This document shows positions 646 through 63,980 of a DNA stretch of 64,000 bases, one piece after another. How positions within the stretch are numbered: position 1 is the stretch's first letter; the number at the start of each line of letters is the position of its first letter. A program made the translations under genes and the position numbers. The notes below the pieces were generated by a model. It ran no database searches. It was not told the origin of the DNA and saw only the letters and a program-made list of their open reading frames with translations. Source of the stretch: Lysinibacillus sp. (GTDB lineage Bacteria > Bacillota > Bacilli > Bacillales_A > Planococcaceae); assembly GCA_032053185.1 (NCBI GenBank), contig DAMBVB010000004.1, positions 77,900 through 141,899 of the forward strand. Direction: 5' to 3'.

Positions 646-706
646 AAAAGCGCTAAAGATTCGTCTCCCTGCCACAGGGGAAGGAGCTGTGCTTTAGCCT
701 AGACAT
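646..706. repeat. Mosaic repeat, GCGCTAAAG...GCTTTAGCCTAGAC type (type C), short copy
   Basis: It shares both termini with 49855-49970 and lies between the iscS start and the cymR stop. Confidence 0.7.
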
Positions 707-707
707 T

Positions 708-1127
708 TTAAATGTAGAACATATAGCCTTCCGCTACATTTTCCTCAGTATATTGTGCTAAATCCTCAATTGTCGTTGTATCTAATACATTTTTAACAGC
801 ATCACGAATGCGCAGCCATAACTCTCGCTGAGGTGCTTCTTCATTTTCAATACCTTCTACTGGTTGAATTGGACCCTCTAACACACTAATAACATTAGCC
901 GCTGAAATTTCACTTGGTGGATTTGCTAGCATATACCCACCATATGCACCGCGTACACTTTTCACTAAGCCTGAATTACGTAATGGTGAAACTAATTGTT
1001 CCAAGTATGCCTCAGAAAGATCCTTTTCAGCAGCAATTTTGCGTAGTGGAATAGGTCCTTCTCCATAATGCTTTGCTAATTCAATCATAATCGTTAGCCC
1101 ATAACGGCCCTTTGTAGAAATTTTCAT
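708..1127 (-). CDS. cymR: Rrf2-family transcriptional regulator, CymR-like cysteine metabolism repressor
   Basis: The ORF track gives 708..1256; the internal start MKISTKGRYGLTIMIELAKHYGEGPIPLRKIAAEKDLSEAYLEQL is the typical Rrf2 wHTH N-terminus. The upstream 43 codons look non-coding. Confidence 0.85.
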   Translation of the reverse strand: MKISTKGRYGLTIMIELAKHYGEGPIPLRKIAAEKDLSEAYLEQLVSPLRNSGLVKSVRGAYGGYMLANPPSEISAANVISVLEGPIQPVEGIENEEAPQRELWLRIRDAVKNVLDTTTIEDLAQYTEENVAEGYMFYI

Positions 1128-1284
1128 CTTATCACCCTCAATTAGTCTAGTCAAAAATACTACCAACAGTATATCATAATCTCCGCTCGAAGAACTCGGA
1201 AATACACTTAGGAGGTTATGATATACTATTAATTGCGCCTTAGTATAGTGAGGCAAAATACTATGTAACGCTTCATTATAAGCA

Positions 1285-1389
1285 CAAAAAACATTTAGCC
1301 AATCAATTATGCCTTGGCATAATTGCGTCCAGAGGCTCTACCTTCTTTATAGCAGGTGTTTGGACACCCGCTATAATAAGTTAAAAATC
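1285..1389 (+). repeat. Mosaic repeat, palindrome/long-hairpin type (type B)
   Basis: CAATCAATTATGCCTTGGCATAATTGCGTCC, then TTCTTTATAGCAGGTGT-TTGG-ACACCCGCTATAATAAGTTAAAAA. The same termini occur at 3105-2755 (inverted), 10870-11124, 40121-40160, 56963-57065 and 63891-63980. Confidence 0.85.
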
Positions 1390-1419
1390 ATTGAAAATCG
1401 TTGAAAGGGGGAATTTTTA

Positions 1420-2709: not shown

Positions 2710-2754
2710 TAAGATTACTAAAAAATAAAGTTTTTTCATGAAAATAGGTCACTT

Positions 2755-3105
2755 CAATTTTAACTTCTTTCAACAAATGTTTTATGTAGCGAAAGCACCG
2801 CGTCAGCCTACAAATGTTTTATGTAGCGTAAGTGAAACGGCAGTTATAGAAGTCTCCTACCTCTATAGGTGGTGAGATGAATGCGGTTTTAAGTCCCTCT
2901 TTCCAAACATCCGCTGAAATAGAGGAACTCATTCCAAGAACGCCATATTCTGTGGCAATTTATCTCCAAAAACATCTGTTGCTGTCGCTTCGCTTTCGCA
3001 CAAAAAACATCTGTTGCTGTCGCTTCGCTTTCGCACAAAAAAACATTTGCATGCCCTAGCACAAAGCCGTTCCTGGACGCAATTATGCCGATGCACAATT
3101 GATCA
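2755..3105 (-). repeat. Mosaic repeat type B, long composite copy, inverted relative to 1285-1389
   Basis: Read on the minus strand: CAATTGTGCATCGGCATAATTGCGTCCAGGAACGGCTTTGTGCTAGGGCATGC, then 35-bp units, then a hairpin module, then TGAAAGAAGTTAAAA. Confidence 0.85.
2973..3043. repeat. Tandem 35-bp units (2 copies) centred on GCGAAAGCG
   Basis: CATCTGTTGCTGTCGCTTCGCTTTCGCACAAAAAA starts at 2973 and again at 3008, giving a period of 35. Confidence 0.9.
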
Positions 3106-3281
3106 TTACTACAACGGTCTTCTCACAATACTCTATTAACATTCACAAAAAAATCTGCAATACTTTAAGAACTTGAAACCCAATCACTCTCACAAAGCAG
3201 AGTACTGTAAGGATTGGTGGATCAACCGCATAAAGTAAGCAGATTTTAGATTGCTAGTTTGTTTTAAGAAAATGATTCAAA

Positions 3282-3842
3282 TTATGTCGTAATTCCATTA
3301 TCAACAAATACTTTAAATTGTTGTAAGCATTGTTTGACTGTGCCTTTTTGTTCAAGCACCGCATTTCGTAATGATGATGTTTTCTCTTCATCCCCTACGA
3401 CTTCACGATAGAGTGCAAAAATTGAAGATAATAATTGTTCATTCTCTTCCTGGTCAATGCTAGGTAAAGAATAGGCAGCAATCGTTAATAATTGCTCAAC
3501 TTTTTCAGGTGTTTTTTGCAACTCATTGGATGAATAGTACATTGATGCTGCTAAAAAGTAGCAAAGCTTTGCACAACAATCTATAAACAAATGCCAATAT
3601 GTATTGGCACTTGGTAATTCACCCGCTCTAGTGTCTAAATACTCTTTATAAAATGTTGTAGCTTGTGTATATAAAGGATGTAGTTCTCTCATAGCCTTTG
3701 GATAATTATTAGATGTATCCAAATAGTCAAATACAATATCATTCATTTTCTCTTGAAGTTTTATAATGTCTAAATGATCACGAATTACTTGAATTTCCAT
3801 TTCCCCACTCTCCCCTGTTGTCATTTGTTTTCTAAACGTCAT
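3282..3842 (-). CDS. Hypothetical helical protein with no family recognised; start uncertain (3842 or 3800)
   Basis: Long open frame. GGGGAG lies before ATG 3842 and GGAGAG/GGGGAA before ATG 3800. AT-rich and bounded by repeat elements. Confidence 0.5.
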   Translation of the reverse strand: MTFRKQMTTGESGEMEIQVIRDHLDIIKLQEKMNDIVFDYLDTSNNYPKAMRELHPLYTQATTFYKEYLDTRAGELPSANTYWHLFIDCCAKLCYFLAASMYYSSNELQKTPEKVEQLLTIAAYSLPSIDQEENEQLLSSIFALYREVVGDEEKTSSLRNAVLEQKGTVKQCLQQFKVFVDNGITT

Positions 3843-4013
3843 TCCTACTCCCCTAGGCAGTCCTGCACATCCAAACAAACTTTTTTATTATCTATTGGAA
3901 TTATTAAAATTATAGCAATAAATCAAATAAAGAAGTGGTCACATGAAAAAAATAAGACAATTTAGTGAATTAATAGCATTTTGAGCACCTAAGACGAACA
4001 ATTTTGGTAAAAA

Positions 4014-4397: not shown

Positions 4398-4577
4398 AAT
4401 AAAACGCCTCCTTTTAAAGTTCTACAGCAAATGTTGAAGGAGTCATAATGTGTCCCTCCATCATAAATTGTATAGATAATCCTAATAAATATCGTAGACC
4501 CATTTTTTACAACTTCCCTATTGTAACATAGAAAAAGTAGCTGTCTTAAATCGAGACAGCTACTTCCATAAAATGGC

Positions 4578-4606
4578 CCACCACCATAACTGAGGGTGAT
4601 TTTTGT
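4578..4606. repeat. Fragment of the type A arm leader (CACCATAACTGAGGGTGATTTTTGTG)
   Basis: Aligns with CACCATAACTTAGGATTGATTTTTGTT at 18849-18875. Confidence 0.55.
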
Positions 4607-4619
4607 GCCACTTTTATTT

Positions 4620-6834: not shown

Positions 6835-6894
6835 TTCTCTTTGCTCCTTTCTTCTTCATCCATTTCTCCCTAGCTTAATTGTAGTTGTTACTAC

Positions 6895-7407
6895 AAAAAT
6901 ATTGGTAAATCAAGATTAAAAAGGTTCATCATCAAAAGTTGTGGATGACTTTTGTTAAAACGCCTACTATGCAAATAAGTTGATTGTAGCGGAGACTGGG
7001 CGACTCCTTGGGAATTAGCAATAGAGGAACGAAAGCTAAGAGCATCACATCCTGTGATAACTCCTTCGTGACCAACATCGTGTTGGCCCGAGATCCTGGA
7101 GCGAGCACATAGGGGAACGAAGGCTAAAAGCATCACATCCTGTGATAACTCCTTCGTGACCAACATCGTGTTGGCCCGAGACCCTGGAGCGAGCACATAG
7201 GGGAACGAAGGCTAAAAGCATCACGTCCTGTGATAACGCCTTCGTGACCAACATCCTGTTGCCCCAAGCGGCTCATCGGACGCCCCAGGAAGCTCTGCTC
7301 TGCGCGAAAGCGAAGCGTCTAGCGGCAAATGTTTTATCTGTGCGAAAGCGTCAGCAACAAAGCGCCCAGGCGGAACGGAAATCAACCACACGTTTTGTGA
7401 TGAACCA
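6895..7407 (-). repeat. Mosaic repeat, arm type (type A), full-length copy of about 510 bp
   Basis: Arms are GTTGATTGTAGCGGAGACTGGGCGACTCCTTGGG (left) and GCGCCCAGGCGGAACGGAAATCAAC (right). It contains 88-bp tandem units, CGTCCGATGAGCCGCT (reverse complement) and GCGAAAGCG modules. It is near-colinear with 38318-38745 in the opposite orientation. Confidence 0.9.
7026..7258. repeat. Tandem 88-bp units (2 full + 1 partial)
   Basis: GGAACGAAGGCTAAAAGCATCAC... restarts at 7026, 7114 and 7202. Confidence 0.95.
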
Positions 7408-10869: not shown

Positions 10870-11124
10870 CTGCCGCTTTCGCGCAGATAAACAATGCGTT
10901 CGGAATCTGCTTTGTGCTTAGGCCTGCAGATGTTTTTTGTGCGAAAGCGCAGCGACAGCAACAGATGTTTTTTGTGCGAAAGCGCAGCGACAGCAACAGA
11001 TGTTTTTTGTGCGAAAGCGCAGCGACAGCATGATGAGGCCAATACGATGTCGGTCATTTCTGTTCTTAGTCTGTGTTCCCTATTTCAGCGGGTTTTTCGA
11101 CACTTGCTAAAAGAAGTTAAAAAT
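10870..11124 (+). repeat. Mosaic repeat type B, composite copy with three 35-bp units
   Basis: ACAATGCGTTCGGAATCTGCTTTGTGCTTAGGCCTGC aligns with the 3080-3045 linker. The hairpin TTTCAGCGGGTTTTTCGACACTTGCTAAAAGAAGTTAAAAA at the 3' end overlaps the GNAT stop codon. Confidence 0.85.
10927..11030. repeat. Tandem 35-bp units (3 copies) centred on GTGCGAAAGCGC
   Basis: CAGATGTTTTTTGTGCGAAAGCGCAGCGACAGCAA starts at 10927, 10962 and 10997. Confidence 0.95.
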
Positions 11125-12292
11125 ATTCATAGAATGCTGGTTTATTAGAAGGTAACGCTTGCTGCCATCGATCAATAATGTCCTCAGCCAATTGTTGATT
11201 TGCATACAAGACTGTATCCTTTACAGAAAGATAGCCCACCATCATCGCTGAAAAAAGATTAATTGGTAATGTTAACATATGCATTTCTGGGATAGAATTT
11301 GTCTCAACTATCGAGACATTTCCATTTTTATTTATGCTATATGCGTGCTCATTCCAACTACAAAATGCATCTTCAATTTGAATATATAACGGCTCCTGAA
11401 TAACACCCCACGGATAATGCTGCATAAACTTTAAAGCGTCCACTATTCTTACCATCACATCCTGAACGACTTCCTTTTTAAACTGTGGTTCTTTAAAATA
11501 GAAACCGAATGGATGGTCGTTAGAAGCAACTCCCTTAATGCTACTTACACTCGCCGCATGAGACGTTATAAAACGCCAAATCGCATGTTCTGCTAGTAAA
11601 TCCCTAGCTATAAAATCTTGAATCTCAAACGTTCCATCCTGAATGATATAGCGAATATAACCTGCAATATTATCATCCTTAAAATATGCCGCAAAATGAC
11701 TATCAGGCGCCCTTCTCTCGATTCTTTTCCACCAAGCATCATCTCGTAGCATACTTCCATTATTAAAAAGCGACTGTGCATTATGAAAATCCTTAATCGC
11801 CTGAAAAAGATCACGATCCGGCCATTCAAAGCTCATACGTCTCACTTCGTCTAATTGCTTTCCAAAAGAAGGAAACAGCAATTGTGGAATGGTGTAACAT
11901 AGCTTTTCAAAAAATAATTCCCAGCCAAAGTAACGATAAAAGGATACGGAAAATGGTGCCAACACAGAAATGCTCTGCCCATTCTCTCGCATTTTCTTTA
12001 GTGCCTCTATCATAAGCTTTTTGATAATACCTTGTTGCCGATATTCAGGATATGTTGCAACAAAACCAATTCCGCCCATCTTATAATTTTCACCATGAAT
12101 TGTCATATTTAGTGGCAATATGAGTAGCTGTCCAACTACTTTATGTTCATCGTAAGCACCCAATGTTGTGCTATGCTCAATCCAATAGTGAAAATCATCG
12201 CGCCTCGCCCCCGTATACTTATTAGAAAAACAATAATCTCTTAATTGATGTACCTGTAAATAATCTTTTGGAGGGATTATTTTTATTTCCAT
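11117..12292 (-). CDS. GNAT N-acetyltransferase with C-terminal SCP2-like domain (Eis-like)
   Basis: 391 aa. The acetyl-CoA motif PEYRQQGIIKKLM and the length and architecture fit Eis-family acetyltransferases. Confidence 0.7.
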   Translation of the reverse strand: MEIKIIPPKDYLQVHQLRDYCFSNKYTGARRDDFHYWIEHSTTLGAYDEHKVVGQLLILPLNMTIHGENYKMGGIGFVATYPEYRQQGIIKKLMIEALKKMRENGQSISVLAPFSVSFYRYFGWELFFEKLCYTIPQLLFPSFGKQLDEVRRMSFEWPDRDLFQAIKDFHNAQSLFNNGSMLRDDAWWKRIERRAPDSHFAAYFKDDNIAGYIRYIIQDGTFEIQDFIARDLLAEHAIWRFITSHAASVSSIKGVASNDHPFGFYFKEPQFKKEVVQDVMVRIVDALKFMQHYPWGVIQEPLYIQIEDAFCSWNEHAYSINKNGNVSIVETNSIPEMHMLTLPINLFSAMMVGYLSVKDTVLYANQQLAEDIIDRWQQALPSNKPAFYEYF

Positions 12293-15918: not shown

Positions 15919-16060
15919 GCCATAAGGTTCATTTCCGTTCTGACTAGGCGCTTTCTTAGGGGGCAACAGGTGTTTATTGCGAGAAAGCTAGGCGGCAGCA
16001 TCCCAAGGAGTCGCCTAGTATCCCGCTCCAATCAACCTATATAGCATACGTTTCCTCAAT
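15919..16060 (+). repeat. Mosaic repeat type A, short copy (arms plus one module)
   Basis: GGTTCATTTCCGTTCTGACTAGGCGCTTTC ... CCCAAGGAGTCGCCTAGTATCCCGCTCCAATCAACC. Confidence 0.85.
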
Positions 16061-18816: not shown

Positions 18817-18848
18817 TTATTTAATTCCTCCAAAATTTATTTGACTCA

Positions 18849-19035
18849 TCACCATAACTTAGGATTGATTTTTGTTACGACTGGGCGCTTTCCTCGGGAT
18901 GTCCGATGAGCCGCTCTATGGTTTCATCTTTGGCGCTAATCTCGAAGAAGTCGCCCAGTCTCTACTCCAATCAATTATCCACATGACGTCCGTTTTCACA
19001 AAATGTCAGCCCAAACTTTTGGTGAAGAACTTTTT
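18849..19035 (+). repeat. Mosaic repeat type A, short copy inside the hisS-aspS spacer
   Basis: GATTGATTTTTGTTACGACTGGGCGCTTTCC, then TGTCCGATGAGCCGCT, then GAAGTCGCCCAGTCTCTACTCCAATCAATT, plus an extension of about 60 nt homologous to 6895-6975 (reverse complement) and 38680-38745. Confidence 0.85.
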
Positions 19036-20536: not shown

Positions 20537-20795
20537 ATAAAAAAGCTCTCGCCTCCTTGCGTAATGCAAGGGACGAGAGCTGTACAAGCTTCCGCGGTTC
20601 CACCCTAGTTGACGCATCAAATACATGCGTCCTTCTCCTAATCGGATAACGGCCGATTCCGTTTTTTCCTACTAAGCATTACTTTTCAGAAAAAAACCTC
20701 TCAAGTGTTGTTCACAATATACATTTTTGTAGGAAAGATTTCAGCCTAGGTCTTTCCCTCTCTTCTCCAATAGAGGTATATGCTACTTGCTTGGT
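20537..20795 (-). promoter_or_regulatory. T-box leader (tRNA-sensing riboswitch) upstream of hisS
   Basis: The minus strand carries AGAGAGGGAAAG (stem I AG bay) and the T-box core CTAGGGTGGAACCGCGG (plus 20591-20604). A terminator follows: AGCTCTCGTCCCTTGC...GCAAGGAGGCGAGAGCT plus a U-run (plus 20537-20580). Specifier not resolved. Confidence 0.8.
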
Positions 20796-20969
20796 CATAA
20801 GCGGTTAATCATTTTTTGATTACCCTTTATGTTAGTCATAACAAAAGGCAATGTCAACTATTTTTATTTTTTTTACGATACATTCGGTAAAATAATAAAT
20901 TCCATACCTTTTTCCCACGAATTCTATTACAAAAGCATGGTAAAATAGCACAAGAATAGGAGGAATCTG

Positions 20970-22553: not shown

Positions 22554-22607
22554 GCGGGGACTTTCTTCATCCCCACTTATTCTATTATAATGTGGGATAA
22601 AAAATAA

Positions 22608-22651
22608 GCTGCAAAGGAAAGTAAACTTGTACTTCCCTTGCAGCTTTTTTT
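22608..22651 (+). terminator. Intrinsic terminator after the amidase gene
   Basis: GCTGCAAAGGAAAG-loop-CTTCCCTTGCAGC followed by TTTTTTT. Confidence 0.8.
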
Positions 22652-23583: not shown

Positions 23584-25779
23584 TTAGTTAATAACACGTT
23601 GCACTGAATATATATCAGGTGTTTGCTTAATACGTTCCACCACTTTATGCAAATGCGAAATATTTGAAATCGAAATCGTTAAATGAATCGTTGCCATTTT
23701 ATCACGATCTGCACGACCACTCACTGCTAAAATATTCGTTTTTGTTTCGCTAACAATTTGCATGATTTCATTTAAAATGCCTGGTCTATCGAAGGCTGAA
23801 ACTTCAATATCGACAGGGTATTCTTTTTTCTCTGGCGTCAGTCCGTGTTCCCATTCAACCTCAATTAAGCGCTCCTGCTCATCTTCTACTTGGATATTTG
23901 GACAGTCTGCACGGTGCACTGAAACACCTCTTCCTTTCGTAATGAAGCCTACAATTTCATCACCAGGAACTGGCGTACAGCAACGTGAAAGTCGAATAAG
24001 CATATTGTCGATATCTTTTACGATAACACCCGATTCCGTACGTTTTTGTGGAATAGGGTGTTTCATTTTTTGCTCAATTTTCTCAAGCGCTTCTTCCTGT
24101 TCACGCTCTTTGCGACGTTTTTCCGCTAGGCGATTAGCAACTTGCTGAGCTGTAATTCCATTTACGCCGACAGCAGCATATAAATCTTCTTCATTTGTGT
24201 AGTTAAATTTTTCGCATACACGCTTCAAGTTTTCCGCCGACATTGTTTCTTTGACGTCAAAATCTTGTGCACGGATTTCCTTTTCAATCATCTCTTTACC
24301 TTTGATGATATTTTCCTCACGAAGATGACGTTTGAAAAACTGCTTTATTTTATTTTTCGCCTGTGAGGATTGAGCTATTTTTAGCCAATCACGGCTTGGA
24401 CCAAAAGATTGCTTAGACGTTAAAATTTCAATAATATCTCCGGTTTTTAACGGTGTATCAAGCGGTACCATTTTACCATTGATTTTTGCGCCAATTGTAC
24501 GATTTCCAACTTCTGAATGCACACGGTATGCGAAGTCGATAGGTACAGAGCCCGCTGGCAATTCAATGACATCTCCTTCAGGCGTGAATACGTAGACCAT
24601 ATCAGAGAATAAATCGAATTTTAAAGATTCCATAAATTCTTCAGCATTAGAAGATTCGTTTTGGAATTCTAAAATTTCTCGGAACCAGGTTAATTTTTGG
24701 TCGACATTTTGTTTTGCATTATCAACTTTTTTACCTTCTTTATACGCCCAATGCGCTGCAATCCCGTACTCGGCAATTTTATGCATTTCCTTTGTACGAA
24801 TTTGAACTTCTAATGGGTCACCATAAGGACCAATGACTGTTGTATGCAGTGATTGATATAGGTTTTGTTTTGGCATCGCAATATAATCTTTAAAACGTCC
24901 AGGCATTGGCTTCCATAATGTATGCACAATCCCAAGTACGGCATAGCAATCTTTAATACTATCGACAAGTACACGAATGGCTAATAAATCATAAATCTCG
25001 TTGAATTGTTTCTTTTGTAACACCATCTTACGATAAATACTGTAAATATGTTTTGGGCGACCATAAATATCCGCTTCAATTTCAACCTCTGTAAGCTGTG
25101 ACTTCATCTCAGCCATGACATTGTCTAAATAGGCTTCACGCTCATCACGTTTTTTCTTCATAAGGCTGACAATGCGATAATATTGCTGTGGATTTAAATA
25201 ACGAAGTGCTGTATCCTCAAGCTCCCATTTAACAGTCGAAATCCCAAGCCGATGCGCAAGTGGTGCAAAAATTTCAAGCGTTTCTTTAGAAATACGGCGT
25301 TGTTTTTCTGCTGGTAAATGCTTTAACGTGCGCATATTATGTAGGCGGTCTGCCAGTTTAATCAAAATGACACGAATATCTTGCGCCATCGCTACAAACA
25401 TTTTTCGATGATTTTCTGCTTGTTGCGCTTCTTTAGATAAATATTTAATTTTCCCTAGTTTTGTTACACCGTCTACAAGCATCGCAACCTCTTCGCCGAA
25501 TTCACGAACTAAATCGTCGCGCGTAAAATCCGTATCCTCGACAACATCATGTAAAAACCCAGCCGCAACTGTTTCAGGATCCATTTGCAATTCAGCTAAA
25601 ATACCAGCTACTTGCACAGGGTGAATAATATACGGTTCACCCGAGCTTCGGAATTGCTCAATATGGGCATCCCTTGCTAATTCATATGCTTTTTTCACGA
25701 ATGCGACATTTTTCTCATTCATGTAGGATTTGACTAACTCAAAAACGTCCCCGGGAGTCAAAATTTGCTCTTTCGCCAT
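23584..25779 (-). CDS. relA: Bifunctional (p)ppGpp synthetase/hydrolase RelA/SpoT homologue
   Basis: 731 aa with HD domain (HDVVEDT), synthetase domain, TGS and a C-terminal ACT. Confidence 0.95.
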
Positions 25780-25927
25780 AACATGTCCACCTTGCTCGTC
25801 AAATTTTTCAGATTAGATATAAACTTAATTGTATAAAATATTATGCGCTATTGTAAAGTAACTGTGTCATTTTGTTTAGTTATTCTCGTGAACAATGTGA
25901 AAAATGGAAAAAATATCCCCATAAACA

Positions 25928-25970
25928 AATAAAAAGACCCTTGGCGAATGTAATATTTCGCAAAGGGTCT
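25928..25970 (-). terminator. Intrinsic terminator after psuG
   Basis: Minus strand: AGACCCTTTGCGAA-loop-TTCGCCAAGGGTCT followed by TTTTTATTT. Confidence 0.8.
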
Positions 25971-25976
25971 CGTTGT

Positions 25977-28164: not shown

Positions 28165-28215
28165 ACTTAGTATGTATCTTGTGCGAAAGAGAAGCGGCAA
28201 CAAAAACAAAATCGG
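28165..28215. repeat. Isolated GCGAAAG-type module fragment
   Basis: TTGTGCGAAAGAGAAGCGGCAACAAAAACAAAATCGGAGGAACGG resembles the 35-bp unit and the GGCGGAACGGAAATC arm. Confidence 0.45.
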
Positions 28216-38231: not shown

Positions 38232-38317
38232 AATACCAAGCTCCTTTTCTTAAAAATCCACTACTGCTTGCCTTACAAATGTTTAGCTGCTAAATCGGTT
38301 CTTGTTGAAAAAAGGAT

Positions 38318-38745
38318 CATTATAGCGTAGGGTTGATTTCCATTCCGGCTGGGCGCTTTGTTGCTGACGCTTCGCTTTCGCACAGATAAAACATTTGCCG
38401 CCGACGCTTCGCTTTCGCGCAGAGCAGAGCTTCCTGGGGGCGTCCGATGAGCCGCTTCACTCGCGTTGCTCGCTCCAGGGTCTCGGGCCAACACGATGTT
38501 GGTCACGAAGGCGTTATCACAGGACGTGATGGTTTTAGCCTTCGTTCCCCTATGTGCTCGCTCCAGGGTCTCGGGCCATTACGAGGTTGGTCACGAAGGC
38601 GTTATCACAGGACGTGATGCTTTTAGCCTCCGTTCCTCTATTGCTAATCCCCAAGGAGTCGCCCAGCCTCCACTCCAATCAACTTATATGCATGGCGTAG
38701 GTTTTAACAAAATGTTACCCCTAATTCCCGATGATGGACAAAAGT
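38318..38745 (+). repeat. Mosaic repeat type A, full-length copy between the trp T-box terminator and trpE
   Basis: GGGTTGATTTCCATTCCGGCTGGGCGCTTTG, then two GCGAAAGCG modules (reverse complement), then GGCGTCCGATGAGCCGCT, then 2 x 88 bp, then CCCCAAGGAGTCGCCCAGCCTCCACTCCAATCAAC plus an extension. Confidence 0.9.
38468..38643. repeat. Tandem 88-bp units (2 copies), reverse complement of the 7026-7258 units
   Basis: GCTCGCTCCAGGGTCTCGGGCCA... restarts at 38468 and 38556. Confidence 0.95.
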
Positions 38746-38786
38746 TTATTAGAAATCATTTGTATGGCATTTTACCAAAGCATGGT

Positions 38787-38897
38787 GTTGTTGATATCTG
38801 TTCCGACTGGGTACTTTCCTGGGGACGTCAGGGAAACAAAATGTTTTCTGTGCATATCGCAGTAACATAGCGGATGTTTATTGTGCGAAAGCGCAGC
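38787..38897 (+). repeat. Second, partial type A element abutting the first
   Basis: GTTGTTGATATCTGTTCCGACTGGGTACTTTCC (arm) ... GGATGTTTATTGTGCGAAAGCGCAGC. Confidence 0.7.
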
Positions 38898-38917
38898 ATT
38901 CATCCCCCTGCAAATAA

Positions 38918-39350
38918 AAACAACAAAAAAAGCCCCCTACAAAAAGGATTTTTCCTAATTGCAGAGGACGATCATGACCGCGTTGCCACCTCATATTAGA
39001 GCATATTTGCTCTCCCTTAAGTGCTCAGCCTTAGTTCGCCAGTTAAATTGACGTATCTTTTGAGTTAATGACAAAAAGATTTATCTAAGTCGTAACACCC
39101 CCTTTAACGTGGGGAATCCGTTCGCTATTATCCATTTCGCCTTGGCGTAACATTCGCCAGAGGCATTGGACCCATAGATGTTTTTTTGTGCGAAAGCGCA
39201 ATGATAACGTACGTCAGCATGCATTTTCGTGACAAAAAACATCTGCTGGATGAAAATAATTAGCGACTCTCATAAGTCCATTCACATAAGCTACAAATCA
39301 GTTTACACCAACCACTGACTCTCTAAATTGCATACTGATGCTACTACTCT
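38918..39350 (-). promoter_or_regulatory. T-box leader with probable Trp (UGG) specifier for the trp operon; unusually long and carrying a repeat insertion
   Basis: The minus strand carries AGUAGUAGC, then AGAGAGUCAGUGGUUGGUGUAAA (stem I), then GAA-UGG-A (plus 39267-39273). The T-box core is AUGAGGUGGCAACGCGG (plus 38977-38990). The terminator is CCUCUGCAA...UUGUAGGGG plus a U-run (plus about 38918-38968). Confidence 0.75.
39174..39246. repeat. Inverted pair of GATGTTTTTTGTGCGAAAGCGC-type modules inside the trp T-box leader
   Basis: ATAGATGTTTTTTTGTGCGAAAGCGC (39174-39199) faces GCATTTTCGTGACAAAAAACATCTGC (39221-39246), giving a stem of about 25 nt. Confidence 0.8.
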
Positions 39351-39566
39351 TATTCAACAATTTCTCAGCTATTCTCATCTAAACTCAGCTCATCTGTTCT
39401 AAGGCTGACCTCGCTCCCGAGACCAACTACCTTGTATCGAACAAAAAAGTTAGTCTTATTCTATGCCAAACAACGATTATTGTCAATCAATTCAGAGAAA
39501 AAGAACAGGCGTTTTGAAATTATATAAAAAGGATAATTCCTCTTTATATATCCCACAAAAAGGAAG

Positions 39567-40040: not shown

Positions 40041-40072
40041 TGCTGAATTCCTCAGCGGAAAGAAGTTAAAAA
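40041..40072. repeat. Extra copy of the type B hairpin terminus (GCTGA-ATTCC-TCAGCGGAAAGAAGTTAAAAA)
   Basis: Shares GAAAGAAGTTAAA with 40147-40160, 57050-57063 and 11108-11121. Confidence 0.6.
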
Positions 40073-40100: not shown

Positions 40101-40120
40101 CTTCAATAAAGACATATGAA

Positions 40121-40160
40121 CAATTATACCTTGGCATCATTGCTTCTGAAAGAAGTTAAA
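40121..40160 (+). repeat. Minimal 40-bp type B element (two termini only) overlapping the secDF stop codon
   Basis: CAATTATACCTTGGCATCATTGC followed directly by TTCTGAAAGAAGTTAAA. Confidence 0.75.
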
Positions 40161-49170: not shown

Positions 49171-49791
49171 CTATTTTAGCTTTAATAGCAATTGTAAAGC
49201 TTGTTTCATAAATGCATCTGTTGTTTCAAGCTTGTCGTTTTCTTCGAGCTGTGGACGTATTTTTTCTAATTCTTTTTCAGAATAACCAAGTGCCATTAAG
49301 GCAAGAATAGCTTCTTCAAGCTCATGTTTATATGGATTCACACCAAATAACGGTAGCTCATCTTCTGTACTTGGTAGCTCAATAGTTTCCAACAATCCGC
49401 CAAGCTTACCTTTTAAATCTAGAATCATTTGACGTGCCGTTTTCTTACCCACACCAGGAAACTTTACTAAAAACGATTCATCCTCTCGTTCAATGGCACT
49501 AATAACCTGTTGCGGATTTCCAGTAGCTAAAATAGCAAGTGCACCCTTTGGTCCAATTCCTGACACTAAAATAAGCTTACGAAACAGCTCTCGTTGGTCT
49601 AAATTTGGAAAGCCATATAACACTTGTGCATCCTCGCGTACATGCAAGTGAACAAAAATTTGTTGTTCAAGGGCCGATGTCCGAAACGCAAATGGATTTG
49701 GTGTATTTAGCTGCCAGCCAATCCCTTGCTGTTCCAGGACGATATACTCAGGAGTTATACGCTTTACTTGTCCTTTTAAATAATCATACAT
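49171..49791 (-). CDS. ruvA: Holliday junction DNA helicase RuvA
   Basis: Internal start MYDYLKGQV. Contains the HhH motifs [12 protein letters not shown] and FPGVGKKTA. Confidence 0.9.
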
Positions 49792-49854
49792 TCTATAATC
49801 CCTCACAATCATCGTCTTCGATTATAGCATATGACGAACGAATGCTCGACTATA

Positions 49855-49970
49855 ACAAATGCGCTAAAGCGCTCGTTTACATCCGACAAGCGCTGGATAG
49901 CCCGAAGCAAAAGTAAGCGATCCACCACTTTTGCCCTAGCCTCGAGGATGTAGCGCTTTAGCCTAGACGA
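49855..49970. repeat. Mosaic repeat type C, long copy
   Basis: GCGCTAAAGCGCT ... GCAAAAGT-N12-ACTTTTGC ... AGCGCTTTAGCCTAGAC. Its termini match 646-706, and its internal hairpin matches the type A extension at 6933-6954. Confidence 0.75.
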
Positions 49971-50932: not shown

Positions 50933-51961
50933 TCACCATCGATAAGGCGTCATCCCGCCTGGGAAATAGTGCGGTGACATCCATGGTCCTACTGACGAAT
51001 ACGGCATATGGCAATGTGATGGACACGGTGGTGGGCATGGCGGCGGACATGGTGGCGGACTGCAACATGTATCCATTTGCCAATTTGGCATCATGACTGG
51101 TTGTGCATGACAACCACAGAGCTGTTCCATTTCTGGCATAGGCTGAAATTCTGGTTTCATAGGGAAGAATGGAGATGTACTAGATTCTAAGAAATCCTCC
51201 ACCCCAGCAACTTTTTCGCATTCCATTTCACATGACGGTTGCTCTGGCATTGTATACGCCTCAACTTGCGGTTCCATTGGCATTGGCATCGGCCAATACA
51301 TATGATGATGCACTGGCTGATGGCAGCTTGCACAATGTGGTACTGCTGGCATTTGTGGCATGATAAAAATCGGTTGCGGCATTGGTGCTGGCGGTGGTGC
51401 CTCCGGTTGGGCTACATGCTGTGGCGGTGGTTGAATTTGAATTGGAGATACAGTTTGCTCTACATTTGGCATGACAACTTGTTGATTCCAGCTAAGCTCA
51501 ACAGGAACTTGGGGCATCGGCATTGGCATTGGATAAGGGATTGGAATCATATGTGGTTCTGGCATTGGTGGTGGTGGTACAATAATTGGTGGTGGCATAG
51601 GTCTTTGAACCTCTTTTTCTTTAACGTGCTTGGTAGGTGACTCCTTGTGCATATGTTCTTTATGCATGTGTTCTTTATGCATATGTTCTTTATGCATATG
51701 TTCTTTGTGCATGTGTTCCTTATGTCCCTCTTTATGTGATTCCCTATGTCCTTCTCTATGCATTCCCCAATCTGTTTCTCGATGATGTTCCCTATGTGGG
51801 TCTTTGTGTATTTTTTCAGGTAGGATAATTTCCATGCCCGGTACAATATAATCTGGGTTAGCGAGATGGGCATTAAGCCGCTTTAAATCTTCAAACGAAA
51901 CTCCATACTCTTTCGCAATCTTCCACAATGTGTCTCCCTTTTGGACAATATGAATACGCAA
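50933..51961 (-). CDS. safA: SafA-like spore coat morphogenetic protein: LysM domain plus His-rich, Pro/Met-rich and Cys-Pro-repeat regions
   Basis: LRIHIVQKGDTLWKIAKEYGVSFEDLKRLNAHLANPDYIVPGMEIILP is a LysM domain like the B. subtilis SafA N-terminus. The probable start is TTG 51961, 6 nt after GAAGGGAGG; the ORF-track ATG 51991 lacks an RBS. Confidence 0.8.
   Translation of the reverse strand: MRIHIVQKGDTLWKIAKEYGVSFEDLKRLNAHLANPDYIVPGMEIILPEKIHKDPHREHHRETDWGMHREGHRESHKEGHKEHMHKEHMHKEHMHKEHMHKEHMHKESPTKHVKEKEVQRPMPPPIIVPPPPMPEPHMIPIPYPMPMPMPQVPVELSWNQQVVMPNVEQTVSPIQIQPPPQHVAQPEAPPPAPMPQPIFIMPQMPAVPHCASCHQPVHHHMYWPMPMPMEPQVEAYTMPEQPSCEMECEKVAGVEDFLESSTSPFFPMKPEFQPMPEMEQLCGCHAQPVMMPNWQMDTCCSPPPCPPPCPPPCPSHCHMPYSSVGPWMSPHYFPGGMTPYRW
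51647..51721. repeat. In-frame 15-bp tandem repeat (5 units) inside safA encoding (HKEHM)n
   Basis: GTGCATATGTTCTTT / ATGCATGTGTTCTTT / ATGCATATGTTCTTT x2 / GTGCATGTGTTCCTT. Confidence 0.95.
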
Positions 51962-52103
51962 TTTTTTCCTCCCTTCCTCTCTTCGTATCATATGTTCAAT
52001 GTTTCATTTGGATACAAAAATTTCACGCATGTTGGAAATGCTTCATGGTACACTAGTTTTTAAGGAAAACTGCTTCCTTTATTACAGGCAGAGGTGATCT
52101 CTT

Positions 52104-54265: not shown

Positions 54266-54339
54266 TAAGGTTTGATTTTATTGGTGGGGTTGATTTCTGT
54301 TCCGAGCGGGCGCTTTCCTAGGGCGTCCGATGAGCCATT
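54266..54339 (+). repeat. Half type A element (one arm plus the CGTCCGATGAGCC module) in the pheB-pheA spacer
   Basis: GGGGTTGATTTCTGTTCCGAGCGGGCGCTTTCCTAGGGCGTCCGATGAGCCATTC. No second arm follows. Confidence 0.8.
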
Positions 54340-56962: not shown

Positions 56963-57065
56963 AATCAATTATGCCTCGGCATGATTGTAGCTGACGCTAC
57001 AGAAAATAATTGTAGCTGACGCTTCGCTTTCGCTACAGAAAATAATTGCTGAAAGAAGTTATAAT
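56963..57065 (+). repeat. Mosaic repeat type B copy between the rpmA terminator and spo0B
   Basis: CAATCAATTATGCCTCGGCATGATTG, then 2 x TAGCTGACGC(TTCGCTTTCGC)TACAGAAAATAATTG, then CTGAAAGAAGTTATAAT. Confidence 0.85.
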
Positions 57066-59397: not shown

Positions 59398-59490
59398 GCC
59401 CTCATCCTTTTTTCACACTATATGAGATGGCATGTCCATTCATGCACAAGAAAAAAACCTTCTCGCACAAATGCACGACAAGGCTAATGA

Positions 59491-60288: not shown

Positions 60289-60289
60289 A

Positions 60290-60958: not shown

Positions 60959-60985
60959 GAATGCCTCACCCCACGTTGCTCTTTG

Positions 60986-61510
60986 TTAAGAAACTTCACG
61001 TGCTCTCTGTAGGACACGCGCATTGATTAGATACTTGAAGGCCCAACCAAGAATCATTAAAAATAGTGCATTAGCAATGATCGTTGGCAGCAGTCGTGAA
61101 CGTAAGAAATCCGATAATGGGATCGTTGTAAAGTCGATTAGATAGAAGAATTGATAGAGTATAAATTCTAAAATTGCTACTAAAATAACTGAAATCGTCG
61201 TTGTCACAACTAAGTGCTGATGAATAACTTTCACAATAGACCCTGCTAAAAAACAAACAAGCGGAAACAGTACTGAATATAATCCAATAATATCAATGTA
61301 AAACACATCATACAAGACACCAAAAAAAAGTCCATACATTACCGCTCTCTGACGGCTGTAATAGATGGATATAAATATTAAATATAAGATTAAAAATCTC
61401 GGAACTAAATAATAAATTTGTCCTTTCACTTCAATCGGTGAAAACATAGCAAACTCTGGTTCTACTAAAAATAGTAAAACTGCCACAGTGGGGATGAGAA
61501 ACCGAACCAT
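60986..61510 (-). CDS. mreD: Rod shape-determining protein MreD
   Basis: 174 aa polytopic membrane protein following mreC. Confidence 0.85.
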   Translation of the reverse strand: MVRFLIPTVAVLLFLVEPEFAMFSPIEVKGQIYYLVPRFLILYLIFISIYYSRQRAVMYGLFFGVLYDVFYIDIIGLYSVLFPLVCFLAGSIVKVIHQHLVVTTTISVILVAILEFILYQFFYLIDFTTIPLSDFLRSRLLPTIIANALFLMILGWAFKYLINARVLQRAREVS

Positions 61511-62421
61511 TATTCCGCCTCCTCTTTACCCTTTTGTGGATGTGTTAAATCCTCGTTTGATGAATTACCATCAGATCCATCTATCACAGTAGCGGAACGT
61601 TTAGCAATAACAACATAGTCTAAAATTGAAAAATCAGCAGATGGTTTTACATAGACCATTTTTGTTAAGCCAAAATCATCTGTACTTACTGCAGTTATTT
61701 CTCCGATTGGCACATTTTTAGGGAAAATACCGCCAAGTCCTGATGAAACTACTTGCTGACCTTTTTTAACTGTTAAACTTGAATCGATTCGCTTCATGAT
61801 GAGTTCATTACGCTCTTTATCATAGCCCTCAATTAAACCGTATGCTTGTTTATCACCTTGAACCATCGCAGAAACACGATAGTTTGGATTATTTGTATAT
61901 AAAAGCTCTACCTCAGAAGTGAAAGGTGTCACTAAAGTAACTTTACCGACTAACCCTTTGGCTGTCAAAACCGCCATATTTTTTTCTACACCGTGTGAAG
62001 ATCCTTTATCTAAAATTAGCTTTTCTTCCCACTGGTCAGGATTTCTAGCGATCACTGTGGCATGAATCGGATCATAAGCTTTTAAGCTTTCCGATTTGTC
62101 CATGAGCTCTTGAAACTTTTTAATATCCGATTTCAAGTCCGATGCCTCAGCTTGTACAGCTGCAAATTCATCTAAGCGTGCTTTTAAACGTTTATTTTCT
62201 TCGTACGTGTTTAAGAGGGAATCAATACTATTAAAAACACCAGTAATATAATTCGCCGGCTTCGCAACAATAGATTGTGCGACGCCGACAGTGTCTTTAA
62301 TAATTTGCTCTGGTAAAGTTGCATTCGTCCGGTCACGTAATGAGAAGCTAATCAATGCCACAAGAAAAACCATGCCCACGAGCAGCAAAATTAATTTCTT
62401 ATTGAAAAAAAAGTGTGGCAT
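61510..62421 (-). CDS. mreC: Rod shape-determining protein MreC
   Basis: 303 aa with an N-terminal TM segment, a coiled coil and beta-barrel domains (GLVGKV, SSGLGGIFP). Confidence 0.9.
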   Translation of the reverse strand: MPHFFFNKKLILLLVGMVFLVALISFSLRDRTNATLPEQIIKDTVGVAQSIVAKPANYITGVFNSIDSLLNTYEENKRLKARLDEFAAVQAEASDLKSDIKKFQELMDKSESLKAYDPIHATVIARNPDQWEEKLILDKGSSHGVEKNMAVLTAKGLVGKVTLVTPFTSEVELLYTNNPNYRVSAMVQGDKQAYGLIEGYDKERNELIMKRIDSSLTVKKGQQVVSSGLGGIFPKNVPIGEITAVSTDDFGLTKMVYVKPSADFSILDYVVIAKRSATVIDGSDGNSSNEDLTHPQKGKEEAE

Positions 62422-62434
62422 TGCCTCAACCTCC

Positions 62435-63454
62435 TTACCCTTTAACTTGTTGTTGACGAATTAAATCAATATGTTCTAGAGCCTTACCTGTACCAATAGC
62501 AACACAGTCCAGTGGATCTTCCGCGATAAATACTGGCATATTCGTTTCTTGGCTAATAACTTTGTCTAAATTCGTTAATAGCGCACCACCACCTGTTAGT
62601 ACAATTCCGCGTTCCATTACATCTGCAGATAATTCAGGAGGTGTTTGTTCAAGCGTTTTTCGAACACCATCAATAATAGATGCTACCGCTTCACGTAAAG
62701 ATTCAGAAATCTCTTGTGAAGAAATTTCGATCGTTTTTGGTAAACCTGTTAAAAGGTCACGTCCTCTAATTTCCATTTTTTCTTCTGGACCCTCAGCCAA
62801 CGCTGTACCAATTTCCATTTTTACTGCTTCCGCAGTACGTTCTCCAATTGTTAAGTTATATGTTTTACGAATATACGAAATGATGGATTGGTCCATTGCA
62901 TCCCCGCCAACACGCACGGATTCACTTGTTACAATACCACCTAATGAAATAACCGCTACCTCTGTTGTACCACCGCCGATATCAACGACCATTGAACCAG
63001 TTGGATCCCATACTGGTAAGCTCGAACCGATAGCTGCTGCAAATGGCTCTTCAATTGTAAATGCTTCTTTAGCACCTGCTTGGCGAGCAGCATCAATAAC
63101 CGCACGTTGTTCAACCGATGTAATACCGTAAGGCACACAAATCATCACATTCGGCTTTTTCCAATTACCACCAGAATTTTTGCAAGCTTCTTTTAAATAG
63201 TATTCTATCATTGCTGTAGTAATATCAAAATCAGCAATAACGCCATCTTTCATAGGACGGATTGCTACGATTGAGCCAGGTGTACGACCAATCATATTTT
63301 TCGCATCATTACCAACCGCAACAATATCTCCAGTTTTTGTATTTTTCGCTACAACTGAAGGTTCGCGTAAAACGATTCCCTTCCCTTTAATAAACACTAA
63401 TGTATTCGCTGTGCCAAGGTCAATCCCGACATCTTTACTTCCTAATCCAAACAA
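62435..63454 (-). CDS. mreB: Rod shape-determining actin homologue MreB
   Basis: 339 aa with TTG start behind AAAGGGAG, starting [21 protein letters not shown]. Confidence 0.95.
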
Positions 63455-63890
63455 ATTGTGTACTCCCTTTCTATTTAAGCCATACTTTCATTGACATCAA
63501 CTTACACCCCGGCGCACTATATCCCGAGGCTTTATCTTCATTCACTCGATGTTGGACACCTTCTGAAAAAAACTACATACTCATTTATCTCACACCTGAT
63601 GGAGTGAGAGTCTTTTTCTGAACGAAAATAAAATCATACCGTTCATTATAACGGAAAAACGCAAGAATTAGTAGTGTCACATACCTCTTCTTGCGGAAAA
63701 GATACTATTTTAATTCCCTCCTAAACAAAAATAGTACGTATAGATTAGCATATAATTTTTATTCTTGTAAGACAACGTGTAGCAGGCCACCAATTTTTGT
63801 AAATATAATAGATATTTCTACGAATACAATAACGTTTTCTATAAAAAAAGGTTCGCTTTTTTTTAGCTGCTCGCAAAACATATTTATTTA

Positions 63891-63980
63891 TCAATGATAC
63901 CTTGGCATAATTGCGTACGGAATCGGCTGGAGGCTTTAACTTCTTTCAGCAGGTGTTTGGATACCCGCTGAAAAAGCAAC
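63891..63980 (+). repeat. Mosaic repeat type B copy upstream of the mreB region
   Basis: TCAATGATACCTTGGCATAATTGCGTACGGAATCGG, then CTTTAACTTCTTTCAGCAGGTGT-TTGG-ATACCCGCTGAAAAAGC. Confidence 0.85.

Follow-up and report, generated by a model that had tools for sequence, protein, structure and literature searches.

The question raised by this locus is what the short, hairpin-rich repeats lying between its genes are, and by what means they have been dispersed. The window, by which we mean the whole 64,000 nt stretch of Lysinibacillus sp. DNA analysed (contig DAMBVB010000004.1, positions 77,900–141,899, forward strand), was originally predicted to hold about 2.9 kb of repeats at some 16–17 sites, and this is close to our own tally of 2787 bp (~2.8 kb) in 19 pieces, where shuffled sequence gives approximately none. 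Most of the 17 listed sites were recovered by self-blastn of the window and by repeat finding with TRF, although 4578–4606, 28165–28215 and 39174–39246 proved to be mere scraps or single units. When pattern matches in the window were compared with those in 100 dinucleotide shuffles of it, the f palindrome was observed 5 times (0.00 expected), the c-unit core GCTTCGCTTTCGC 11 times (0.11 expected) and the left arm pattern 5 times (0.00 expected), confirming that the repeats are real and far above chance. All copies in the window are intergenic, and the repeat pieces overlap ORFs of at least 150 aa by 6 bp in total, though such ORFs make up ~73 % of the window. They extend beyond the window and are genus-wide: a strict arm pattern, the single pattern by which the Lysinibacillus loci were ascertained, matches at least 117 stretches, every one of them in Lysinibacillus genomes (~19 species-level assemblies). 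The possibility that there is no repeat family here, just fortuitous similarity, low-complexity sequence or ordinary terminators and regulatory hairpins, draws on the short (29–51 bp), weak pieces in the original list and on an ordinary terminator-like hairpin at 22601–22651 found by self-blast, but it is refuted by the shuffles (0–0.11 matches expected, 5–11 observed), the >117 matches across the genus, the flanking duplications and the empty sites, and we give it practically no credence.

The initial picture of dispersed, modular, intergenic, gene-less repeats, rich in hairpins, variable in internal unit number and reminiscent of BOX, REP/BIME or Correia elements, is thus borne out. They do not form one superfamily, however, since at least two carriers differ in their ends and insertion footprint, and a further hairpin repeat, of low copy number, belongs to neither. 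We consider it quite probable that the carriers represent two mechanistic kinds of non-autonomous mobile DNA, an ISL3-derived MITE (type A) and a site-directed element (type B), which have a common pool of hairpin cargo.

Type A, comprising the elements with paired arms, is a true MITE. The arms had been taken for the element ends but are internal cargo; among 84 arm pairs from the 117 Lysinibacillus loci, conservation continues beyond them to inverted termini that lie ~22 bp outside the left arm and ~55 bp outside the right one. Outside the arms are terminal inverted repeats of ~22–30 bp (GGCTCATCACCAwAACGTGGGG…/…ACTTTTGGTGATGAnCC), flanked by 8 bp target duplications; the consensus sequences of the two ends are identical at 26 of 34 positions, with GGnTCATCACCAAAA common to both. 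The flanking 8-mers are at least 7/8 identical in register in 14 of 29 complete copies, compared with 0–1 of 29 in controls shifted by 1–3 bp, several of the duplications being imperfect and about half of the copies scoring 6/8 or less. Complete copies are 189–681 bp long and lack a transposase gene, the sole ORFs inside them being spurious and built of repeat sequence. Type A thus shows every hallmark of a MITE: small size without genes, inverted repeats, a duplication of fixed length, and presence/absence variation of multiple copies.

Three full-length type A elements are present in the window. The first (6923..7406, − strand, 484 bp) has flanking 8-mers ATTAAAAA and ATAAAAAA and is composed, in order, of the right inverted repeat (6923–6941), the right arm, three Bacillaceae-1 units, module d, c units, the left arm and the left inverted repeat (7387–7406); its three tandem 88 bp units (7020..7262, + strand) each contain a 67 nt match to RF01690 of 64–74 bits. 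A module e had been proposed at 6933–6954 and again at 49907–49934, but the former is nothing more than this element's right terminal inverted repeat, and its likeness to the latter is too weak to establish homology. The second (18843..19031, + strand, 189 bp), in the hisS–aspS spacer, has flanking 8-mers ATTTATTT and TTTTATTT, is predicted to fold over its whole length into one hairpin (−60.3 kcal/mol, z = −3.9), and occupies the orthologous position in Lysinibacillus sp. NPDC056232 (L044) as well. The third (38314..38739, + strand, 426 bp) has worn inverted repeats, lies in the 5′ UTR between a T-box leader and trpE, and contains two c units, module d and two Bacillaceae-1 units (38488–38642, − strand); in tandem with it is a second copy (38765..38897, + strand) of which the left inverted repeat and left arm alone remain, followed by a c-like unit. 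The other type A sequences, all on the + strand, are a core with both arms, one c-like unit and decayed outer ends (15925..16036), a truncated left half with an inverted-repeat remnant, left arm and module d (54270..54339), and a weak scrap (CCACCACCATAACTGAGGGTGATTTTTGT, 4578..4606) that resembles a left inverted repeat and arm start in a by-eye comparison with 18843–18872.

A possibility raised at the outset, that the modules might be the ends of an already named IS or MITE family, is partly realized, as the ends of type A belong to an ISL3-family insertion sequence. The type A consensus matches the IS encoding transposase P0043 (domains PF01610, Pfam DDE_Tnp_ISL3, and PF13542) at 27 of 34 positions at the left end and 26 of 34 at the right, and differences specific to the left and right ends are retained. 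This IS (IRL GGCTCATCACCAAAACATGGGGTTGAAATC; IRR GTCATCCCCGACTTTTGGTGATGAACC) occurs both in Listeria and on the chromosome of Metalysinibacillus saudimassiliensis, and is flanked by perfect 8 bp duplications at three of three sites (ATAAAATA, TAATATTT and AAACTTTG). Autonomous ISs with matching ends occur in Metalysinibacillus, Listeria, Priestia and Geobacillus, and that of Priestia has the IRR …ACAACTTTTGGTGATGAACC and is flanked by the duplication AAAATACT. Neither the window nor ~0.93 Mb of Lysinibacillus loci yielded an autonomous ISL3 copy with type A ends, and the nearest is in a sister genus. ISL3 transposases have been reported in L. irui (PMC11166776). There are also versions without a core, including a 154 bp Geobacillus MITE with ends as in type A and the duplication TTCACTTA, and 32–75 bp versions in Lysinibacillus.

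The ISL3 insertion sequences and type A have in common terminal inverted repeats starting with GG, an 8 bp AT-rich duplication, and the left and right end sequences; they differ in that type A lacks a transposase and has a GC-rich modular hairpin in place of the IS interior. In the parent IS the left end is followed, on its inner side, by a small hairpin (GGTTGAA…TTCAACC), and at this position type A has the GC-rich ~125 nt hairpin core. Type A probably arose from an ISL3-family IS through internal deletion and, since it retains the IS-specific left and right inverted repeats, could be moved in trans by an ISL3 DDE transposase, each move producing an 8 bp AT-rich target duplication. The window has no transposase, as had been observed, and this is to be expected of elements that are non-autonomous.

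The type B elements, which carry modules f and g, end in two dissimilar hairpins, lack both inverted repeats and a duplication, and lie directly 5′ of a pre-existing TTAA or TTAT. The f palindrome (CAATTATGCCnnGGCATAATTG, 22 bp) and the g hairpin (TTAACTTCTTTCAGCGGGTGT…) are unrelated sequences. All three clean empty sites have an unduplicated TTAA or TTAT at the junction, and the right flank is WTAA in 20 of 22 cases. A short form, consisting of the f palindrome and g hairpin, is located at 1302..1380 (+ strand) and is followed by TTAA (1381–1384), and a long form of 340 bp at 2764..3103 (− strand; TTAA at 2760–2763) contains the g hairpin halves, module i (a CCACCTATAGAGGT hairpin), four c units and the f palindrome (3080–3101). 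The element at 10870..11116 (+ strand) has no f palindrome but contains three perfect tandem 35 nt c units and half a Bacillaceae-1 unit, and its TTAA target (11117–11120) overlaps the stop codon of a GNAT gene (11117..12292). Similarly, the TTAA (40156–40159) beside a minimal 37 bp element made up of the f palindrome and the right end (40119..40155, + strand) overlaps the secDF stop codon; a scrap of g hairpin lies nearby (40041–40069). A 95 bp element with two c units (56964..57058, + strand) is followed by TTAT, and another (63890..64000, + strand) runs past the end of the window and is missing from the orthologous L030 site, which is empty (…TATTTATTT/TTAAAATAAT). An internal fragment with a g-like hairpin and module i (63526..63625, − strand) was absent from the original list.

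These footprints suggest that type B would be inserted by a single-strand, HUH-type or other site-directed transposase acting directly 5′ of the TTAA or TTAT. Type B shares with elements of the IS200/IS605 type the lack of inverted repeats and duplication and a position beside a fixed tetra- or pentanucleotide, but not the similar subterminal hairpins at both ends, and because its end hairpins are unlike each other it is a poor fit to that group. No candidate type B transposase was found: none of the type B copies longer than 830 bp has an ORF, and a tblastn search of ~1 Mb for Y1/RAYT-like genes gave no match at E<0.8, a weak test that used three TnpA/RAYT queries.

It could be argued that both carriers belong to a single REP/BIME-REPIN-like system in which one HUH transposase (RAYT or of the IS200/IS605 type) acts on hairpins and the ISL3-like ends of type A are incidental. 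The hairpin-rich architecture, the footprint of type B, the modules common to both carriers and a strong strand bias (described below), which is expected of single-strand transposition, are all in keeping with this. We nevertheless regard it as very improbable, since the 8 bp duplications and both IS-specific ISL3 ends of type A are not made by HUH enzymes, the elements are 80–680 bp long compared with 20–40 bp for REPs, type B has two end hairpins that do not resemble each other and, with the weakness just mentioned, no Y1/RAYT-like match was seen in ~1 Mb.

With two separate carriers as the favoured reading, we note that both have been mobile. Filled and empty orthologous sites were paired four times for type A in Lysinibacillus (L099/L119, L107/L065, L046/L093 and L066/L032) and three times for type B (L101/L058, L118/L035 and the window element at 63890 with L030). 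Both are also strongly oriented with respect to co-directional neighbouring genes, with ratios of 30 : 8 for type A (p = 5e-4; 38 deduplicated sites between co-directional genes) and 20 : 1 for type B (p = 2e-5). The gene-sense strand of type A (30/38, ~80 %) folds better in 36 of 42 cores (−52.0 versus −48.0 kcal/mol) and coincides with the strand of the Rfam model in 17 of 17 RF01690 copies. The bias relative to genes is inseparable from a replication-strand bias, and for type A it is not something that DDE transposition predicts. The elements may persist solely where the harm they do is small, namely between genes and with a single orientation relative to genes and replication.

A few repeats stand apart from these. 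The GCGCTAAAG…CCTAGAC hairpin (h-type) is a separate low-copy repeat, distinct from types A and B, with four copies in the ~1 Mb examined. Two are in the window, both on the + strand: one (GCGCTAAAG…GCTTTAGCCTAGAC, 646..706) between cysteine desulfurase and Rrf2 genes, and one (49855..49970) in the spacer beside ORF 49171..49812, which is putatively ruvA from gene order. There is also an isolated c-like unit at 28165..28215 (− strand), and a c-like hairpin unit at 39174..39246 (− strand) is part of a 126 nt insertion within a stem–loop of the T-box leader (38961–39366, − strand).

The cargo, present in both carriers, consists of a ~125 nt covarying hairpin core with arms GGTTGATT…AATCAACC, 35 nt GCGAAAGC units (c units) and the 88 bp unit, and in type A the two kinds of unit are found inside the core. 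The 88 bp unit had been recognized as a repeat unit and is already catalogued as Rfam RF01690 (Bacillaceae-1): it contains a full-length 67 nt match of up to 79 bits with two RUCCU-loop hairpins, and there are five matches in the window (60.7–74.8 bits; gathering threshold 35 bits) and 23 more in 18 Lysinibacillus loci outside it. No other Rfam family was matched, and Rfam would include any curated BOX-like RNA. Of the 28 matches examined, 27 are located within or next to an element of type A or B, frequently as tandem units, and both c units and RF01690 are present in both carriers. Type B is nested inside type A in L046, and orthologous copies differ in module content (55 versus 295 bp, 128 versus 189 bp and 120 versus 301 bp). 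Such mixing might come about by insertion of one element into another, by slippage that changes the number of tandem units, and by recombination or conversion among the many copies.

An alternative reading makes the cargo more than a passenger. The core has 34 predicted pairs (98.5 % paired, in a structure derived from the same alignment used for the test) and, among four variants, 11 compensatory pairs, compared with 5.6±1.1 in shuffles (0/500) and 1–3 in slid controls; Lysinibacillus and Priestia cores share conserved unpaired motifs. The core is widespread on plasmids of many Bacillales, some copies lying within the leader of an IS1182-family element, and on Priestia plasmids and in IS1182 leaders it occurs without ISL3 ends. 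The covariation, the conserved unpaired motifs and the occurrence without ISL3 ends raise the possibility that the cargo has a life or function of its own. Weinberg et al. (2010) considered RF01690 likely to be an RNA, with a homodimeric protein as its possible partner, and RMfam proposes CsrA binding, but for the opposite strand. On such grounds the cargo (the core with or without Bacillaceae-1) could be a selected structured RNA or protein-binding platform that functions as part of mRNAs or as a sponge and is spread by the MITEs and ISs on which it hitch-hikes, and the orientation bias, with the better-folding gene-sense strand agreeing with that of Rfam, would then reflect a function at the RNA level. 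We think this unlikely, though less so than the other alternatives. Covariation in a hairpin is equally expected of a DNA or single-strand-DNA structure or of a palindromic mobile element, and the core structure was taken from the alignment that also tested it; copies are variably truncated and shuffled, module number varies freely between orthologous sites, there is no outstanding promoter or terminator signal of their own, and the orientation bias cannot be told from that of replication. The cargo of the two carriers is probably, in the main, a passenger.

The repeats add a new member to a familiar class of selfish DNA; they do not constitute a new system. Like BOX of Streptococcus pneumoniae (boxA–boxB(n)–boxC), for which to our knowledge no mobilizing enzyme has been established, they are modular, gene-less, intergenic and highly structured, with outer modules that pair and internal units that vary in number. 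The resemblance is architectural, without known sequence similarity, and they differ in that type A has ends, an 8 bp duplication and a candidate parent family in ISL3, and in that the cargo is common to two carriers with different ends. BOX elements are also found clustered with other small repeats and nested within them (summarized in PMC10969869). Type B resembles REP/BIME, REPINs with RAYT and IS200/IS605 palindrome-associated elements in its hairpin ends, its lack of inverted repeats and duplication, its fixed tetranucleotide and its strong strand bias, but differs in having unlike end hairpins, no HUH transposase that we could find, and a larger, modular form; type A clearly does not fit. 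REP/BIME proper, with palindromes of 20–40 bp in alternating orientation and RAYT, was rejected, as the units here are 35–130 nt long within larger bounded elements and there was no RAYT-like match in ~1 Mb. Correia elements have a TA target duplication, and we know of no Rfam-catalogued motif carried as cargo by them, by ERIC or by the Porphyromonas gingivalis MITE. All three, the last of which carries a minisatellite (PMC4596501), are like the present elements in their small size, the inverted repeats at their borders and the tandem repeats or hairpins, stable at the RNA level, that lie within, and in sometimes being co-transcribed with their neighbours, but differ in their ends, target duplications and hosts. 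Finally, Bacillaceae-1 was described as a candidate free-standing trans-acting sRNA (Weinberg et al., 2010), although the flanks in that alignment place RF01690 within a conserved ~190 nt unit bounded by inverted repeats in B. subtilis and B. licheniformis; in the window and the 18 further Lysinibacillus loci it is an internal module of mobile elements and can be repeated in tandem.

The repeats named in the original prediction are real, most of their sites being recovered by self-blastn, repeat finding and TRF, and three diagnostic patterns are matched 5, 11 and 5 times in the window as against 0.00, 0.11 and 0.00 times in shuffles. The window itself (39 % G+C) has a Bacillus-type gene order with aspS, hisS, trpE, secDF and pheA-like genes confirmed by Pfam, together with Rfam matches to 6S RNA, two T-box leaders and an L21 leader, and it is assigned to a Lysinibacillus chromosome because it aligns at 91-94 % identity to two contigs of Lysinibacillus sp. 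NPDC056232. Our own annotation of the window gives 2787 bp of repeat in 19 pieces, which, save for 6 bp, lie outside ORFs of at least 150 aa, such ORFs making up about 73 % of the sequence. When a collection of species-representative genomes was scanned with a strict left-arm pattern, at least 117 stretches were found among the matches listed, all of them in Lysinibacillus, in about 19 assemblies, one genome having 14 or more; the related DNA used for analysis comes to about 0.93 Mb, its loci being given L numbers here. The repeats probably account for several per cent of the intergenic DNA across this genus, which is applied in bioremediation and against mosquitoes.

The largest unannotated signal in the window is explained for the most part by non-autonomous transposable elements with exchangeable hairpin cargo. 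These do not form the single superfamily originally proposed, since there are at least two carriers with unlike ends: type A has inverted repeats and an 8 bp target duplication, and type B has neither. Rfam searches of the whole window, with gathering thresholds and in permissive E-value mode, matched the repeats only to RF01690, with none for the core hairpin of type A, for type B or for the h hairpin, and a phage collection gave no match. Literature searches with diagnostic sequence strings returned primer coincidences only, and those on Lysinibacillus MITEs or repeats and on the B. subtilis '190-bp element' returned nothing relevant; no prior description of these Lysinibacillus elements was found in the literature searched, the coverage of which is incomplete. 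The MITE Chunjie was dropped as a Geobacillus comparison, as it comes from Geobacter. Two ORFs, of 101 aa (6891-7196, minus strand) and 134 aa (38466-38870, plus strand), consist purely of repeat sequence; such ORFs are likely to be mis-annotated as hypothetical proteins, and these two can be removed as spurious genes.

To define the type A ends, 84 arm pairs and their flanks were aligned, and conservation was seen to run outward past the arms. The left end reads GG[C/A/T]TCATCACCA[A/T]AACGTG[G/T]GG, directly preceding TTGATTTCC, and the right end, past CTCCAATCAA, reads CTTATTTACATAGTAnACGTTTTAACAAAAGTCATCCACAACTTTTGGTGATGA[A/G]CC, with the outermost 22 or so nucleotides forming inverted repeats; the hairpin at 6933-6954, originally listed as a module in its own right (e), is the right end of a type A element. 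Complete copies are 189-681 bp long, and the 8-mers flanking them are identical at seven or more positions in 14 of 29 (six of them perfectly), a level reached by only 0-1 of the 29 in control registers shifted by 1-3 bp. Filled and empty sites are seen between related species at L099/L119 (duplication AGAAAATA), L107/L065, L046/L093 and L066/L032; L111 was rejected as an empty counterpart of L028, as it retains a remnant of the element.

A short-query search of plasmids led to an ISL3-family IS of Priestia megaterium with the right end …ACAACTTTTGGTGATGAACC and with AAAATACT duplicated on both sides, and a protein search with its transposase found P0043, which carries the DDE_Tnp_ISL3 domain. 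The P0043 IS is bounded by IRL GGCTCATCACCAAAACATGGGGTTGAAATC and IRR GTCATCCCCGACTTTTGGTGATGAACC and has perfect 8 bp duplications at three independent sites. The MITE consensus agrees with the P0043 IS at 27 of 34 positions on the left and 26 of 34 on the right, and it keeps the differences between the two ends, as is characteristic of internal deletion from such an IS. We have high confidence that type A is an ISL3-derived MITE, which gives one of the repeat families a concrete proposal for its mechanism in the form of ISL3 ends and an 8 bp duplication. The 90 %-identity cluster of P0043 takes in proteins of Listeria and Metalysinibacillus saudimassiliensis, the chromosome of the latter holding a complete 1.3 kb copy of a P0043-type IS, and ISL3 transposases have been noted among the strain-specific genes of L. 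irui (PMC11166776). Relatives of type A that lack the core are found in Geobacillus (154 bp, duplication TTCACTTA) and in Lysinibacillus (32-75 bp). No autonomous ISL3 copy was found in the window or in the Lysinibacillus loci (about 0.93 Mb), where no type A end pairs are spaced 1-3 kb apart, and the first 50 kb of the L. sphaericus plasmid pBsph contain no transposase.

Several type A copies lie in operons and leaders. The T-box leader upstream of trpE (38961-39366, minus strand; trpE, 36861-38231) is 406 nt long as against 219 nt for the model, because one stem-loop holds a 126 nt insertion with a c-like unit in it. Two type A MITEs (about 560 bp) then separate the end of this T-box from the start codon of trpE, which makes the 5′ UTR about 730 nt long; the whole arrangement spans 38231-39366 on the minus strand. 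Another type A MITE (18843-19031) is located between hisS and aspS, downstream of the T-box of hisS (20566-20807), and is kept at the matching site in NPDC056232 (L044, about 3430-3620); it is therefore older than the split of the two species and has been tolerated within a probable operon. These copies, and the unit in the T-box stem, offer test cases for effects on gene expression. In NPDC056232 a match to the RF00029 group II intron domain (55 bits; L030 1100-1184) lies a few hundred base pairs from a type A MITE.

The 88 bp unit of the repeats is RF01690, Bacillaceae-1. We examined 28 matches, five from the window and 23 from 18 other loci. Of these, 17 are found between complete type A arms, their relative orientation being constant, three beside a type A left arm, seven no more than about 130 bp from a type B end and one at a locus edge. 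Bacillaceae-1 was described as a likely trans-acting RNA 'found in many gene contexts' (Weinberg et al.; PMC2864571), and the flanks of that alignment embed it, in B. licheniformis (NC_006270) and B. subtilis (NC_000964), in a conserved unit of about 190 nt bounded by inverted repeats, UCAGCGUGUCGACAAACCCU … AGGGUUUU..UCACGCUGA. That alignment includes no Lysinibacillus sequences, and no arms were found in it (PMC2864571); the Bacillus unit looks like a MITE-like carrier different from those of Lysinibacillus. In the Lysinibacillus loci examined Bacillaceae-1 behaves as mobile-element cargo, which should temper its reading as an sRNA gene and points to where a function should be sought, and we judge its identification as a mobile-repeat module in these loci to be the most useful by-product of the analysis.

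The core carried by type A elements forms a long, imperfectly paired hairpin, whose modal length is 127 nt as extracted and 128 nt from arm to arm; one complete MITE folds as a single hairpin (z=−3.9). Four variants are seen (core-1, core-2, a third in L037 and a Priestia plasmid copy, which is annotated as a hypothetical protein), with common architecture and conserved, GGA-rich unpaired motifs and with differing stem sequences. There are 34 predicted pairs, with 98.5 % of cells paired, and 11 pairs have changed on both sides, as against 5.6±1.1 in shuffles (0 of 500 as many) and 1-3 in slid controls; this demonstrates either selection for the hairpin or a mechanism that generates it, with RNA and DNA not distinguishable and with the structure taken from the alignment on which it was tested. 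The core is present on 19 plasmids, of Priestia (there without ISL3 ends), Peribacillus, B. badius, Niallia, Paenibacillus, Planococcus, Sporosarcina, Cytobacillus and B. subtilis. On plasmids of Peribacillus sp. R9-11 (L132 301-429) and Bacillus badius (L131 301-432) it forms part of the leader of a transposase gene of the IS1182 family, and the related IS1182 copies compared (L133 and L134) are without it. The extra 200 bp or so of these leaders has CTACAGT repeats at its limits and a right flank similar to the subterminal part of the Lysinibacillus MITE right end. It is conceivable, though we think it improbable, that the core, often with Bacillaceae-1 units in its tip, is a separate Bacillales module with a role of its own, in binding proteins as RNA or ssDNA or in stabilizing transcripts, that spreads by settling in the subterminal hairpins or the leaders of transposons unrelated to one another, in Lysinibacillus those of ISL3-type MITEs and in Peribacillus and B. 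badius the leaders of IS1182. On this view RF01690 would belong to a hitch-hiking module and would not be an sRNA gene.

Both carriers contain c units and RF01690; c units are also found within a T-box stem and, in L030, within the loop of a Bacillaceae-1 hairpin, and in L046 a type B element sits inside one of type A. The differences between orthologous copies involve entire modules, which are at times bounded by short direct repeats and at times replaced. Insertion of one element into another, slippage and inter-copy recombination are enough to account for the shuffling of modules noted in the original prediction.

Between co-directional genes, and with orthologous duplicates removed, gene direction is opposite to the element orientation for 30 type A copies and the same for 8 (P=5×10−4), the corresponding numbers for type B being 20 and 1 (P=2×10−5). 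In most cases it is the strand with the GGA-rich arm sequence, on which RF01690 also reads in its Rfam direction, that is sense to the adjoining genes; this strand folds better in 36 of 42 cores, contrary to the expectation that the CU-rich strand would form the more stable hairpin. We read the bias as purifying selection on the position and direction in which copies are tolerated, and in type B it may also reflect a bias of single-strand insertion. Transcription and replication biases are confounded and inseparable in the local GC skew, and simple promoter and terminator scans gave counts equal to shuffles and did not single out the elements; an RNA-level role is possible.

Some features stand apart from both carriers. 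Only four copies of the h hairpin (646-706 and 49855-49970) are present in about 1 Mb, and it has only CCTAGAC and GCTAAAG-like strings in common with the Bacillus 190 nt unit. Tandem 15 nt (TGCATATGTTCTTTA, five copies) and 24-mer (3.7 copies) repeats at 51648-51797, within the ORF at 50933-51991, probably represent repetitive coding sequence with no relation to the intergenic repeats. An Rfam match below threshold, to Listeria rli56 (25906-26001, minus strand; 34.5 bits as against a gathering threshold of 47, E=0.047), lies near the start of the ORF at 23584-25779 on the same strand. A 1.7 kb insertion in L078 (4426-6165; position about 3112 in L015) contains an alpha/beta-hydrolase-like ORF, is absent from the orthologous locus of the other species and has a terminator-like hairpin (AAAAGCTGAACTA…TAGTTCAGCTT) on either side, the two copies being inverted; this 1738 bp segment was rejected as an IS, being a hydrolase gene.

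Type B is represented by 48 copies with both ends, from ATCAATTATGCCnnGGCATAATTG… to …CTGAAAGAAG, of 37 bp to about 350 bp; of the three longest apparent pairs (588-827 bp) at least two are false end pairings. No genes were found inside the copies; the interior of one (L063 5139-5727) is a minisatellite of about 20 imperfect 24-25 nt units (GCTTCCGCGGGTATTCsCTyT). A full-length copy of 91 % identity adjoins a TetR gene on the Bacillus pseudomycoides plasmid NZ_CP064267.1 (L130 4001-4138), a plasmid of the B. cereus group, which suggests that either the element itself or DNA of Lysinibacillus type was recently transferred horizontally. The bases following type B are WTAA in 20 of 22 copies, and two TTAA targets in the window overlap stop codons, those of a GNAT gene and secDF. 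At three clean empty sites (L058 compared with L101, L035 with L118, and L030 with window position 63890) the TTAA or TTAT was already present and is unduplicated. Probes for Y1/RAYT transposases, a weak test, had no match in about 1 Mb. With moderate confidence, we regard type B as a TTAA-adjacent, duplication-free element, and as a tractable lead to an insertion activity of this kind. Its footprint, without inverted repeats or duplication, is like that of single-strand elements of the IS200/IS605 or REPIN type; however, IS200/IS605 elements have similar hairpins at both ends, whereas the two ends of type B are unrelated hairpins, and for this reason type B is not assigned to that family.
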